From Verrucomicrobiota bacterium (GTDB lineage Bacteria > Verrucomicrobiota > Verrucomicrobiia > Chthoniobacterales > JACTMZ01), in contig JBEDBL010000002.1 in NCBI GenBank assembly GCA_041177245.1, positions 1-35,369 on the forward strand: 35,369 nt of DNA, in the 5' to 3' direction. The stretch's first letter is position 1. Each line of letters opens with the position of its first letter. This document shows, piece after piece, positions 4,706 to 14,511 of this stretch. Made by a program: the position numbers and the translations under genes. The notes under the pieces are model-generated. The model ran no database searches and was not told the origin of the DNA. It was given only the letters and a program-made list of their open reading frames with translations.

Positions 4706-7018
4706 TCAGTTCAAGTAAGCTGGACGGTAAACATCGACCGGTTTGCCCTGGGGCATACTGCGGAATCGCCTCCACGCGCCGCGCGTGGCGGGATCATTTT
4801 CGTCGGGCAGCGGGATCTCCTGCAGAGCCGTCTCGAAGCGCTTGCGGGCAGAGATGACTTCCGGGTCTGCAGACTCGCTCACGTCGCGGTATTCGTCACG
4901 GTTGGCCGCACCGCGGGTATCATAAAACCGCCCGCGGCCGTCGAGGAGCCAGTCTTTATCCCGCAACCAGCGCGCGTTGTTCATAGCCATCCGGATGGTC
5001 TCGCGTGGCGTGAAGGTTTCTCCGAGCAAATATGGGGCAAAACTGTGGCCGTCGGTGTTCATCGGTCCGCGATATCCCGCGAGTTGCGCGAAGGTCGGCC
5101 AGAAGTCGGTGAAGTCCACAAGCACGTCGCTGGAACCGCGGGGTCGCACCGGACCGCCACCCACCACCAAGGGAACGCGGATGCCGTTGTCGCGATCGTA
5201 GCTGTTCTTGTCCATGACAGCGTTGCGACCGCGGATGTCGGCCGTGCCGTTGTCGGAGGCGAAGAAGATGACGGTGTCCCTCGATCGTCCCTGCTTGGCC
5301 AAGCTTTCACGGAGACGTCCGAGCAGGTGGTCGAGGTAATGCATGTTTGAAGCGAGCGTTCCGGGCACCTTGCCGCCGGTCGGTTGGCCTTGTTTGTCCA
5401 GCTCCGGCACATCGGTGTAATACCAGCGTCCCTCGGGCGAACCGTCCACCTCCTCGTGCGCCTTGTGCGGGAGATTGGTTGCCCAGTAGGCGATGAACGG
5501 TTTGTCGCGCTCGGTTGCGGCGAATCCCAGCAAATGCTGCAGCTCCAGTTCAGGCCCGAAGTCCTCCGGCGTAGTCGGCACACCTTTGCCGTTGCGAACC
5601 AGACCCGGGTGCCAATACCAAGAGACGCCATACATGTCGTTCCGGTCAGGCGACCAATGGTTTTGCCGAGGTCCATTGTGTCCCGGCCAATACCATGCAA
5701 TCAGCCAGTCATCTGCGCCCAACACACCCGCATCGGGACCGTCCCCCGGGTGTTTTTTGCCGATCATGCTGGTGGCGTAACCAGCCTCCTTCATCATCTT
5801 GAGCACCGGCAGATGCCGCGGATCTTCCCAAAATGGCACTTCGGGGCAGACCGGGTTCTCGTAGTAGCCGGTGTGGTGCGGGTATTTGCCAGTCATCATC
5901 ATGGCGCGGGACGGGGCGCACACGGGCGTGGACCACGCATTCCGGAAAAGCACGCCGCCGTCAGCCAACTTCTGCAGGTTGGGCATGGTAATCGACCCGC
6001 CGTAGGGCGACAGTTCGTCGGCCGAAACATCGTCGGCGAGAATGAAGACGATATTGGGAGGACGTGCTTCGGTCAGGTTACGTTCGCCGTCGTCGCGGAC
6101 TGCGCGCTGCGACCGAGGGTTGAAAACATTTCCATTCAGCAGGTTGTCATCGGCGAAATCGTGGTTGTCGGCACTACTCCCGAAGCTGTAGCCGGCGTCG
6201 GCTTCGCAGTAGTTGCGACGTCCTTGGCGCGAACCGAGCCAGATGCCGTAACTGCCCGGGCGCGATCCGGAGAGATCGAAGGTATTGTTCTCGATGCGGT
6301 TTTCACGCGGCGCTTGATGGCGGACCGTGCCTCCTTCGCCGCAGTTGCGATAAAGGTAGATGCCGCCGAAGGCGGCGCGGACGAAGCGATTTCCCTCGAT
6401 GATGTTGCGCGCTGATCCATCGACGGCGATGACTTCGCGTGCAGCGCGAGTGTCGAACGTGCAGTTTTCGATCGTGTTCTCAGCGCTTTCCGCGTCGAGA
6501 TAGAGGACCGTGGAGGCGGACCAGCCGGTGAATCTGCAATTCTTGACAGTCACTCCCGTGACACCGGGACCTAGATAGAGAGGGATGCGGTGGTTTGCCT
6601 CGATTTGCATATTTTCGAGAACGATCTGCCGCGGTGCCGCCGCTTGGGCGCGCTCCGTATGACCTTCGCGCACAGAGGAGTTGCGCACCCGCGCAGCCTC
6701 GCCGTTGATTCCGAGGCCGAAGATGCGGATCGCTCCGCGCAGGCGTCCGTTGCGGATGGTGATGCGTTCCGGCACGTCCCAGCCACGACGTTTTTCCTCC
6801 GAGCGGATAACGATCTCCGTCGGCTTCCCTTCATTGAACCATCCGCCCTGCAAATCGATAAAGGTGCCGCTGGCGCCGCTGCCGGCAAGAACCACCTGTT
6901 CAAGACGCGGCGACGGAGCGAGCAGTCTCAGGAGGGTCGAAGGCGCGAAATAGAACCACAAGGCTACGGTCGCGCTCGCCAGAAGCAAAACGACGGCCGT
7001 CCCAAGTTTGAAGGACAT
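4706..7018 (-). CDS. Membrane-anchored or secreted fusion protein: N-terminal right-handed parallel beta-helix region plus C-terminal formylglycine-dependent (type I) sulfatase
   Basis: 770 aa with an ATG start and a hydrophobic N-terminus (MSFKLGTAVVLLLASATVALWFYF). PbH1-like repeats occur in the N-terminal part (VTVKNCRFTG, NTIENCTFD, NIIEGNRFV, NRIENNTFD, LLNGNVFN). The sulfatase domain starts at PPNIVFILADDVSADEL (about 6061 downward). The C-x-P-x-R signature PVCAPSRAMMMTGKYP has CAPSR encoded at 5906-5920. LPHKAH and FFASDNG blocks are also present. Confidence 0.9.
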   Translation of the reverse strand: MSFKLGTAVVLLLASATVALWFYFAPSTLLRLLAPSPRLEQVVLAGSGASGTFIDLQGGWFNEGKPTEIVIRSEEKRRGWDVPERITIRNGRLRGAIRIFGLGINGEAARVRNSSVREGHTERAQAAAPRQIVLENMQIEANHRIPLYLGPGVTGVTVKNCRFTGWSASTVLYLDAESAENTIENCTFDTRAAREVIAVDGSARNIIEGNRFVRAAFGGIYLYRNCGEGGTVRHQAPRENRIENNTFDLSGSRPGSYGIWLGSRQGRRNYCEADAGYSFGSSADNHDFADDNLLNGNVFNPRSQRAVRDDGERNLTEARPPNIVFILADDVSADELSPYGGSITMPNLQKLADGGVLFRNAWSTPVCAPSRAMMMTGKYPHHTGYYENPVCPEVPFWEDPRHLPVLKMMKEAGYATSMIGKKHPGDGPDAGVLGADDWLIAWYWPGHNGPRQNHWSPDRNDMYGVSWYWHPGLVRNGKGVPTTPEDFGPELELQHLLGFAATERDKPFIAYWATNLPHKAHEEVDGSPEGRWYYTDVPELDKQGQPTGGKVPGTLASNMHYLDHLLGRLRESLAKQGRSRDTVIFFASDNGTADIRGRNAVMDKNSYDRDNGIRVPLVVGGGPVRPRGSSDVLVDFTDFWPTFAQLAGYRGPMNTDGHSFAPYLLGETFTPRETIRMAMNNARWLRDKDWLLDGRGRFYDTRGAANRDEYRDVSESADPEVISARKRFETALQEIPLPDENDPATRGAWRRFRSMPQGKPVDVYRPAYLN

Positions 7019-7033
7019 GGCCCCCGACTTTAT

Positions 7034-13733: not shown

Positions 13734-13761
13734 GGCACTTCTTGGAAACCTTTGAGGAGGT

Positions 13762-14511
13762 TTAAGGATCGAGCGTGAAGAGAAGCTTTCTTGTCGCCTC
13801 ATCCATGTTTTTCACATTGAGCTTCTCGACATGGCCGTCGGCAAACAATGCGGCCGCACCACCTGAGTTGCGTGGATCCGGCCCAACCGAAGGGTCGTAT
13901 CCCTTCCCCACGAAGCTCTTCCCGTCGATACCCCAACTACTGGCCCAACCAGACTCGATAGCGCTGCAAGAGATGACCTTTCTGGAAGGAGCAGGTATGG
14001 CGGAAAGAGGTATACCCAGCCCCCGTTCAGTGCCGGCGCTGTTCTTGAACTTGGCGAGGTAGCCACTGTCATCGAGCACCACTCCTCCATTAACGCCGAA
14101 CGAACCCCAAGGATGCTCGTTTTTGCCCCTCAAAACCGGGTCGTAAAACATCGCAGGCAAGCGGAGCGTATCGCTATAGTGCATCGATTGCAGTTCCTTG
14201 GATTGCCCGACGAGGATGTTCTGAAACCACATACCAGCCCCTTGGGAAAAACGCGCCCAGTTCACAGACAGCGGCAGACGGTTGTTGTTCTCAGCCGCGA
14301 AATTGGCCACGAGCATGCCTGTCTGTTTGAGATTTGACATCGACTGCGCCGACTTGGCGGATAACAGAGCGGATTTTCCAGCCGAAAAGACGACGGCTGC
14401 CAAAACGGCAATAATGGCAATAACAACCAGCAACTCGATCAGAGTAAAGGCGGCAGACGGCAGTTGATTCTGCAATGGGCACGAGGCGAATCTGTGCTTG
14501 GAGGATTTCAA
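13762..14511 (-). CDS. Prepilin-type N-terminal cleavage/methylation domain protein (pseudopilin-like, H-X9-DG/DUF1559-type)
   Basis: AAFTLIELLVVIAIIAVLAAVVFSAG is the class III signal/methylation motif. The C-terminal FADGHVEKLNVKNMDE fits H-X9-D. The ORF begins with TTG at 14511-14509 and has no in-frame ATG upstream of the motif. Confidence 0.85.
   Translation of the reverse strand: MKSSKHRFASCPLQNQLPSAAFTLIELLVVIAIIAVLAAVVFSAGKSALLSAKSAQSMSNLKQTGMLVANFAAENNNRLPLSVNWARFSQGAGMWFQNILVGQSKELQSMHYSDTLRLPAMFYDPVLRGKNEHPWGSFGVNGGVVLDDSGYLAKFKNSAGTERGLGIPLSAIPAPSRKVISCSAIESGWASSWGIDGKSFVGKGYDPSVGPDPRNSGGAAALFADGHVEKLNVKNMDEATRKLLFTLDP

Follow-up and report, generated by a model that had tools for sequence, protein, structure and literature searches.

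A type IV pilin-class gene is a constant member of a verrucomicrobial glycan locus type and a possible accessory of glycan handling at the cell envelope

What does a type IV pilin-class protein do among the genes of a glycan-degradation locus? The question is raised by a 35,369-nucleotide stretch of DNA from Verrucomicrobiota bacterium (GenBank assembly GCA_041177245.1, contig JBEDBL010000002.1, positions 1 to 35,369; hereinafter the window), which is contig C2 of a freshwater metagenome-assembled genome (2.79 Mb, 86% complete) of an uncultured organism. Here, a first-pass annotation had described six minus-strand open reading frames (ORFs) between positions 4706 and 14511, all of which are present; they code in order for a pilin-like H-X9-D protein, a GH116 glycoside hydrolase, a 213-aa protein of unknown kind, a DUF6786 protein, a FucP-family major facilitator superfamily (MFS) transporter, and a beta-helix/Cys-type sulfatase. 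Bacteria of the Planctomycetes–Verrucomicrobia–Chlamydiae (PVC) group do much of the breakdown of sulfated glycans from algae and plants; to our knowledge they lack SusC/D, and we know of no established route by which the polymers cross their outer membrane. Likewise, the prepilin-type H-X9-DG proteins are, as far as we know, the largest PVC paralogous family and have no assigned function. We find that the pilin gene is retained in this locus type through several rearrangements, and we tentatively read it, at a likelihood that we put somewhat short of even, as a locus-specific, co-expressed accessory of glycan handling at the envelope.

Synteny was established by look-ups of pilin orthologues (43–91% identity) and by tblastn searches with all window proteins. 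Orthologues in this identity range occupy the same locus type on ten independent contigs (L001, L004, L007, L009, L011, L013, L014, L022, L188, and L189), and one is present in all eight related loci with a GH116 at least 73% identical to that of the window, two of which were reached without using the pilin at all. In a reverse test, which started from six GH116 homologues on long contigs picked without reference to the pilin, the two closest loci (L188 and L189; GH116 76–77% identical) have a pilin orthologue 30–35 nt upstream, scoring ~330 bits to the family profile. Within the genus, a high-scoring family member is found in only 5 of 13 genomes, GH116 is about as unevenly distributed, and the orthologue is carried only by genomes with this locus type. 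The arrangement around it varies: L001 and L022 read MFS_2, GH43-like, pilin, GH116, 213-aa protein, DUF6786, FucP, sulfatase; L004 starts in the same way but has a giant LamG protein inserted 3′ of GH116; L011 reads MFS_2, pilin, GH116, 212-aa protein, AraC; L013 reads pilin, beta-helix sulfatase, WbsX, GH99-like, rhaM, GH116; and in L007 and L009, the pilin gene closes the row after MFS_2 and a GH43-like gene, and GH116 stands in another part of the locus. GH116 orthologues at 73–89% identity adjoin a pilin orthologue, and the recurrence of the same order in independent metagenome contigs (L001, L004, L011, L022, L188, and L189) places it far from chance. The locus type thus always includes the pilin gene, but without a fixed bond to GH116 and, as a rule, not in first place.

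The description of the unit as headed by the pilin gene holds for the window, where that gene comes first, and breaks down in the relatives, where it follows MFS_2 or the GH43-like gene or comes last. It is first in the window because two plus-strand genes, coding for a 2-hydroxyacid dehydrogenase and a glycerate kinase (14562..16823; assigned by Pfam), have been inserted between the GH43-like and pilin genes, splitting an ancestral MFS_2/GH43-like/pilin/GH116 array. The six-gene unit is accordingly not isolated: beyond the two inserted genes the MFS_2 and GH43/32-like genes lie upstream on the same strand. The insertion is absent from this site in L001, L004, L022, and L189, and present in L188. 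That contig (7723–9027; GH116 77% identical) shares the dehydrogenase and kinase pair, set between transporter and pilin genes and running against them; its kinase is a 95-aa remnant, and the GH43-like gene is missing.

Every orthologous locus has 89 nt or more in front of the pilin gene, and wherever another gene follows, it is 18–43 nt away. The corresponding divergent intergenic region of the window (14476..14657) holds a block of ~100 nt conserved with the relatives, which is a candidate promoter/operator and reads TGGCAC...TCTTTyCTGTC...AAGGCCGGTTGCC...GAATTARG; in an alignment it is kept in L001, L022, L004, and L013, although the upstream gene differs. The block may be a promoter/operator right before the pilin gene, and in that narrower sense the gene would still head the unit. 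No match to the sigma-70 consensus was found in 14476–14657, and a scan of 4000–15500 for sigma-70 promoters and intrinsic terminators gave nothing convincing in the intergenic gaps. Two more specific identities were rejected: TGGCAY-N10-19-TGTC as a locus-wide operator recovers only the original site and one chance-level match in the window, and a sigma-54 element is discounted by eye, as the spacing of TGGCAC-N5-TTGC does not fit. The ORF-derived start of the divergent 2-hydroxyacid dehydrogenase, at 14562, falls within the conserved block; its true start is probably Met33 at 14658, which is preferred because the homologue in L188 has 322 aa.

Co-transcription had been proposed from intergenic gaps of 28, 85, 36, 3, and 15 nt. 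Four of these are exact, and the gap of 85 nt holds for a GTG start at 10441 but becomes 88 nt for the listed ATG at 10438. We looked for a terminator separating the pilin gene from GH116 and saw none: the 101 nt around the junction fold no better than their shuffles (z=0.15) and have no terminator-like structure. The tight co-directional spacing, this junction and the conserved 18–43 nt gap are compatible with one transcript, and the six genes are probably co-transcribed from the conserved ~100-nt region just 5′ of the pilin-like gene. An Rfam scan of the whole window returned zero matches.

The product of the pilin-like gene (13762..14511, minus strand) is a prepilin-type protein of the type IV pilin class whose C-terminus carries a DGH-X9-D motif; it is recognized by PF07963 (N_methyl; 28.6 bits, cutoff 21.2) and TIGR02532 (25.6 bits, cutoff 16.3). 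Its start is probably a TTG at 14475 (237 aa) rather than 14511, since the nearest orthologue (P0007, 91% identical) begins MSRLPTAA-FTLIELL; the mature protein would then have ~228 aa. An alignment of 50 orthologues shows invariant F+1, E+5, YDP123–125, H133, W193, DGH225–227, and E229, with P22 in the consensus. At position −1, where Gly is expected for prepilin peptidase cleavage, the window protein has Ala and the orthologues Ala (the majority) or Gly. The assignment of the protein to DUF1559 has to be withdrawn, Pfam giving no match to PF07596 (DUF1559/SBP_bac_10) at E≤0.01. The H-X9-DG model TIGR04294 reached 16.1 bits against a cutoff of 19, and the motif is DGH227-X9-D237-E, i.e., H-X9-DE, with the DGH and D237 (nearly) invariant in the orthologues. 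The N-terminus is similar to GspG/H/I and PulG-type proteins; a GspG/PulG identity was rejected, as TIGR01710 scores 20.2 bits against a cutoff of 88.85, over the N-terminus only, and the gene is not in a gsp operon.

An AlphaFold2 model built on the 50-orthologue alignment (predicted local distance difference test, 91.9; predicted template modelling score, 0.83) has a 51-residue N-terminal helix (residues 24–74) followed by a mixed beta-sheet head. The predicted order of secondary-structure elements fits the pilin fold, with an alpha1 helix on an antiparallel beta-sheet, though the best match in the PDB is weak: in a profile search of the PDB the matches to type IV pilins, geopilins, and GspG were confined to the N-terminal helix, and Foldseek retrieved nothing from the PDB at E<0.001, its best hit being the FimA pilin 3sok (E=0.79, TM 0.32/0.48). 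On this model the protein is of the pilin class, with a private head domain.

The family had been called massively expanded; our counts are ~12 paralogues of 200–250 aa in the window's own genome and 3–23 copies in relatives. About half of the own-genome paralogues lie in sugar loci, and the contexts recovered include LacI, pilin, SASA esterase, and a rhamnogalacturonase-like/GDSL gene; GH16, pilin, MFS_2, and GH17; pilin and MFS_2; a pilin beside a LacI-type regulator; and pilin, a melibiase-like gene and, further along, a GH42-like gene. In another context a PEP-CTERM protein gene overlaps the pilin start by 4 nt. All three MFS_2 (glycoside–pentoside–hexuronide, GPH) genes of the genome (18388–19911 in the window, and one each on contigs C26 and C72) lie within 5 kb of a paralogue. 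On contig C7 (~14.7–15.5 kb) an H-X9-DG-type paralogue has on one side ZnuABC-like genes with a Fur/Zur-like regulator and on the other the gene for a secreted protein of 421 aa. This setting is one of metal uptake rather than glycans; the His/Asp motif that is invariant in the family may form a metal site.

We extended the survey to 21 genomes of the same order, with 80 further loci and 66 non-orthologous paralogues. An operon-first position is not the rule among them: 43 of 63 are preceded on the same strand by a gene no more than 120 nt away, in many cases overlapping by 4 nt, just 20 of 63 come first, and 30 of 63 have a tight downstream gene. By Pfam, the upstream neighbours are PEP-CTERM proteins (5, the commonest match), PATR (4), GH16, LacI-type regulators, and ABC_tran (3 each), and GntR (2); those downstream are Sugar_tr (4), MFS_2 and PEP-CTERM (3 each), glucokinase and LacI-type regulators (2 each), and single cases of GH18, GH78, GH5, LPMO10, GH29, and 3-keto-disaccharide hydrolase. 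Sugar MFS genes make up ~0.2% of the genes in these genomes (132 matches in ~64 Mb), and yet they fill 8 of the 126 immediate neighbour slots against ~0.3 expected; among the matches listed, of 65 strong MFS_2 or Sugar_tr genes 10 have a family member no further than 5 kb away, where ~2–3 would be expected. These figures are rough, being based on our own gene calls and on listed matches only. The excess is not due to shared ancestry alone, because it comprises at least five distinct arrangements (e.g., C26, C72, L037, L053/56/64, and L078).

Several recurrent arrangements came to light in the same survey. In L031, L071, L073, L095, and own-genome contig C108, genes for PEP-CTERM proteins (267–315 aa) end 4–19 nt inside the start of a pilin-like gene, an overlap that suggests translational coupling. 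Four loci from genomes of the same genus as the window (L031, L051, L060, and L063) share a four-gene module made up of a 298–304-aa protein ending ...LSFAY, a pilin-like protein, a 388–486-aa gene, and a 230-aa gene, with gaps of 6–11 nt before and 3 nt after the pilin-like gene; the LSFAY C-terminus is outer-membrane-barrel-like. In seven others (L043, L049, L057, L068, L074, L084, and L104) the gene for a 340–400-aa membrane protein with a conserved basic tail (...RRLSRWAKMTPEQRI...) overlaps a shorter pilin-like gene by 4 nt; the partner has ~171 aa when mature and is without the DGH motif, making this a distinct conserved pair.

As a wider control we took 80 random family members from across the PVC bacteria, mostly Planctomycetota and diverse Verrucomicrobiota, with crude gene calling and with the 25 commonest neighbour families listed. 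Operon-first or solitary copies make up 47 of 63 in this set, and the neighbour tally, taken over 65 family members, has no dominant family related to sugars. The 114 immediate neighbours match 212 Pfam families, none with more than three members: ECF sigma factors have three, followed by alpha-amylase/CBM48, heparinase II/III, and others with two each. The neighbours are not obviously unlike 54 control genes at least 6 kb away, and an enrichment of sugar-operon gene order across genomes, which had been named as a check on the idea, is not visible in the random sample. At this resolution the glycan association is a trait of particular lineages or subfamilies, and not of the whole superfamily.

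The genome has machinery through which such a protein could act. A prepilin peptidase is encoded on contig C96 and a canonical type II secretion system (T2SS) pseudopilin operon with a secretin on contig C9; in total there are four secretins (three beyond that on C9) and five T2SSE-family ATPases (PilB/PilT type), PilT-like ones among them. No gsp genes were found in the window. In the mechanism that we favour, the prepilin peptidase of the genome would cleave the class III signal peptide, with its Ala at −1, and the cleaved pilin would either join a type IV filament machine or stay in the inner membrane via its alpha1 helix. The variable head would then handle the glycan or oligosaccharides of its locus at the envelope, by capture or by hand-over towards the MFS transporters, and the family would consist of PVC paralogues with each copy bound to a different locus. 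We favour glycan handling over enzyme export because the assembly helix is conserved and the head diverges from locus to locus, because sugar symporters and sugar regulators recur most strongly as neighbours, and because the same enzyme family lacks a pilin in other lineages.

Several points weigh against a glycan-handling role. In the reverse test, the four loci with GH116 at 48–68% identity (L190–L193) have no family member within 10 kb; two of these have MFS_2 directly upstream of GH116, and a XylR-type regulator accompanies a PEP-CTERM protein in one. Some paralogues of the own genome lie in non-sugar contexts, namely beside Zur/ZnuABC-like genes, metY/metX-like genes, and an amidohydrolase, and no sugar-related family dominates in the random PVC-wide sample, where the crude calls leave room for a moderate enrichment. 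Classical prepilin peptidases cleave poorly after an Ala at −1. For the head domain the PDB offers no structural relative, neither a binding site nor a ligand could be inferred, and the three PATR surface proteins of the locus could themselves be the glycan binders. The L190 locus (10001–23219) is of note in its own right: it has three GH116 paralogues in one co-directional array behind the XylR-type regulator and PEP-CTERM protein, with no pilin-like gene.

Since the pairing of pilin and GH116 is limited to one clade, export of GH116 cannot depend on the pilin in general. The suggestion that it serves as a general exporter of this enzyme falls away, as GH116 homologues of 68% identity or less occur in similar loci without a pilin-like gene, and a dedicated GH116 export factor was likewise rejected, the pilin being apart from GH116 in L007, L009, and L013 and absent from L190–L193. 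A broader form, in which a substrate-induced pseudopilin joins the T2SS pseudopilus and promotes outer-membrane export of GH116, DUF6786, the sulfatase, and the 213-aa protein, gains from the N-terminal GspG/H/I and PulG-type similarity, the complete-looking pseudopilin operon with its secretin on C9, the Sec-type signals of all the downstream enzymes, and the T2SS export proposed for alginate lyases encoded beside a PulG-like pseudopilin (PMC13274419). We nevertheless consider it unlikely: the GspG, GspH, and GspI equivalog scores are far under their cutoffs (e.g., 20 versus 89 bits), signal-bearing GH116 homologues of the same architecture are found in pilin-free loci, the pilin of L007 and L009 is the last gene after the transporter and GH43-like genes, apart from GH116, and the paralogues are enriched beside inner-membrane sugar transporters rather than beside one enzyme class. 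Nor does it sit well with the T2SSs known to us, which use one fixed pseudopilin set for all substrates. Those sugar transporters, immediately adjacent as MFS_2 or Sugar_tr in at least five arrangements, and the nearness of all three MFS_2 genes of the own genome to a paralogue would also fit a protein tethered in the inner membrane, in which the pilin N-terminus is a cleavable anchor only and no filament is formed, the head acting in the periplasm, e.g., as a sensor or by binding oligosaccharides in partnership with the neighbouring MFS/GPH symporters; LacI-type regulators adjoin several of the loci, and assembly genes are in none of them. This we hold to be quite improbable in view of the strict Glu+5 and the consensus P22, which matter for filament assembly and not for anchoring, and of a head unlike periplasmic binding proteins; moreover, we know of no binding-protein-dependent MFS transporter.

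The pilin may also have no specific link to glycans, being a general envelope or pilus paralogue that is syntenic in one lineage by shared descent. The clade-limited pairing (none of the four loci with GH116 at 68% identity or less) and the occurrence of the family in many unrelated contexts are what one would expect of such a bystander, and many of the sampled loci come from close relatives, so that the synteny is partly ancestry. There is only a small chance, in our estimate, that this is the whole explanation: the gene stays through rearrangements (before GH116, before the sulfatase in L013, last in L007 and L009, after MFS_2 in L011), it survived the array-splitting insertion in the window and in L188, sugar transporters are enriched beside non-orthologous paralogues, and proteomics of a cultured Opitutales strain shows co-induction (PMC13274419). 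The locus-specific accessory of glycan handling thus remains our preferred reading. Its boldest extension, which we regard as a long shot, is that in Verrucomicrobiota and other PVC bacteria the H-X9-DG-type pilins serve as exchangeable subunits that are induced by the substrate and confer specificity, each locus lending its head to a shared PilT-retractable filament or pseudopilus that draws polymer through a secretin into the periplasm, where MFS symporters take over. If true, the device would be a functional analogue of SusC/D assembled from components of type IV filaments, much as competence pili take up DNA.

The remaining genes of the unit can be described more briefly. The GH116 glycoside hydrolase (10527..13733, minus strand; N-terminal domain PF12215, 126.8 bits; catalytic domain PF04685, 123.5 bits) is predicted to be secreted and has an inserted beta-sandwich module. 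It is followed by the 213-aa exported protein (9800..10441, minus strand), which has no family assignment, with no match in the Pfam or NCBIfam scan, and is kept 3′ of GH116 in L001, L004, L011, and L026 at 50–72% identity, and by the exported DUF6786 protein (8510..9763, minus strand; PF20583, E=3×10^−150), syntenic in L001, L004, L026, and L189. The predicted sugar:H+ symporter (7034..8506, minus strand; PF07690) belongs to the FucP (FHS) family of MFS transporters; as it falls below the equivalog cutoffs of both TIGR00885 (262.7 versus 280.4 bits) and NF007524 (232 versus 427 bits), it is not assigned as the L-fucose:H+ symporter FucP itself. The last gene (4706..7018, minus strand; PF13229 and PF00884) codes for an N-terminally anchored right-handed beta-helix with a Cys-type sulfatase that has the CAPSR formylglycine motif; orthologues at 84–87% identity occur in L001, L013, and L026, and in L013 the gene lies directly 3′ of the pilin gene. 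About 100 nt past its stop is a weak terminator-like hairpin (4580..4602, minus strand), found by consensus scan only and with a poor T tract. The export signals that had been reported are in keeping with signal-like hydrophobic segments, judged by eye, at the N-termini of GH116 (when read from Met 13733), the 213-aa protein, DUF6786, and the sulfatase.

Nearly the whole window is one glycan locus of ~33 kb, of which the six genes form the distal part. It further includes rhaM (1284–1601), genes for an FAH-family hydrolase and a sugar isomerase-like protein (2158–4518), and, with Pfam assignments and synteny by tblastn, a GH43/32-like enzyme (16817–18391, minus strand) and the MFS_2 (GPH) transporter (18388–19911, minus strand); then follow, by Pfam, a GH78-like gene (19905–22400) and three PATR surface proteins in 25644–35353, and GH99-like and WbsX-like genes are also part of the locus. 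The fucan or fucose flavour that had been given to it is weakened, as the gene content indicates rhamnose no less than fucose, given rhaM, the GH78-like gene and a GH116 homologue (P0167, 1178 aa) that is a GH116–rhaM fusion. A large rhamnose/deoxyhexose-type utilization locus for sulfated glycans would be the best explanation of this gene content. Close GH116 homologues carry the label Verrucomicrobiota.

Overall, then, a tightly spaced unit compatible with co-transcription and a stable, co-inherited pilin gene in a glycan locus are what remain of the first interpretation, and the genome has the filament machinery; the operon-first rule, the DUF1559 identity, the massive expansion and general export do not. 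The interest of the case is that it is a clean one, in which a single orthogroup is kept inside one defined glycan locus through several rearrangements, yielding a concrete, testable pair of pilin and locus. Its reach is limited by the usual position of the gene away from the operon start, by the distant GH116 loci that do without it, and by the lack of a visible association in the random PVC-wide sample.

Set beside known systems, the locus resembles the polysaccharide utilization loci of Bacteroidota in its clustered exported enzymes, surface proteins, and transporters, and in the AraC-type regulator of its relatives; unlike them, it shows neither SusC/TonB-dependent transporter nor SusD families among the 23 window ORFs scanned against Pfam, and its uptake genes are inner-membrane MFS symporters. 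With the T2SS pseudopilins GspG–K and type IVa pilins the window protein shares the methylation motif, Glu+5, the long alpha1 helix, a beta-sheet head, and a presumed dependence on prepilin peptidase; it differs in equivalog scores far under the cutoffs, in a head about twice that of GspG with no solved relative, in being encoded away from assembly genes, and in its Ala at −1. It likewise has the FTLIELL class III signal peptide, the large paralogous family, and the DGH-X9-D C-terminus of the PVC H-X9-DG prepilin-type proteins, from which it is set apart by its score (16.1 versus 19 bits), its DE ending, the lack of PF07596, and its shorter mature length of ~228 aa. Proteins of that kind are marked by TIGR02532 at the N-terminus and TIGR04294 at the C-terminus, in Planctomycetes also by DUF1559 (PF07596). 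Those families elsewhere run to dozens or hundreds of copies, against ~12 in the own genome; in Planctopirus limnophila, for example, DUF1559 with its 68 copies of unknown function outnumbers every other group of paralogues (PMC10632474).

Pilins have been tied to glycans in the PVC group before. Work cited by PMC11131199 connects polymer binding with the crateriform structures and type IV pili of planctomycetes, and an Akkermansiaceae locus, MUL2, with a type IV-like pilin has been tied to glycan attachment and uptake (PMC13174399). MUL2 (Amuc_1099–1102, with the pilin Amuc_1102, PDB 7DSZ) is alike in pairing a verrucomicrobial pilin-class protein with attachment or uptake of fucose-rich/sulfated glycans, and unlike in being one conserved, housekeeping-like locus with a PilM partner rather than a private paralogue per enzyme operon; our PDB fold search detected no similarity to 7DSZ. 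The closest parallel is Verruconatronum alginivorum (Opitutales), where proteomics found the PulG-like pseudopilin pgaptmp_000050, with 67 paralogues, inside an alginate-induced operon and a second pseudopilin among the few other alginate-induced proteins, the authors suggesting T2SS export for the alginate lyases encoded beside the former (PMC13274419). That operon has alginate lyases and a pseudopilin of a different orthogroup, and the likeness drawn here is one of context; both are pseudopilin paralogues set in an operon with which a verrucomicrobium would break down and import one particular polysaccharide. With a pseudopilin in an alginate-induced operon already reported (PMC13274419), the idea is not new in outline and will not surprise a specialist, and the window is a well-defined test case of a pattern already glimpsed in the literature.

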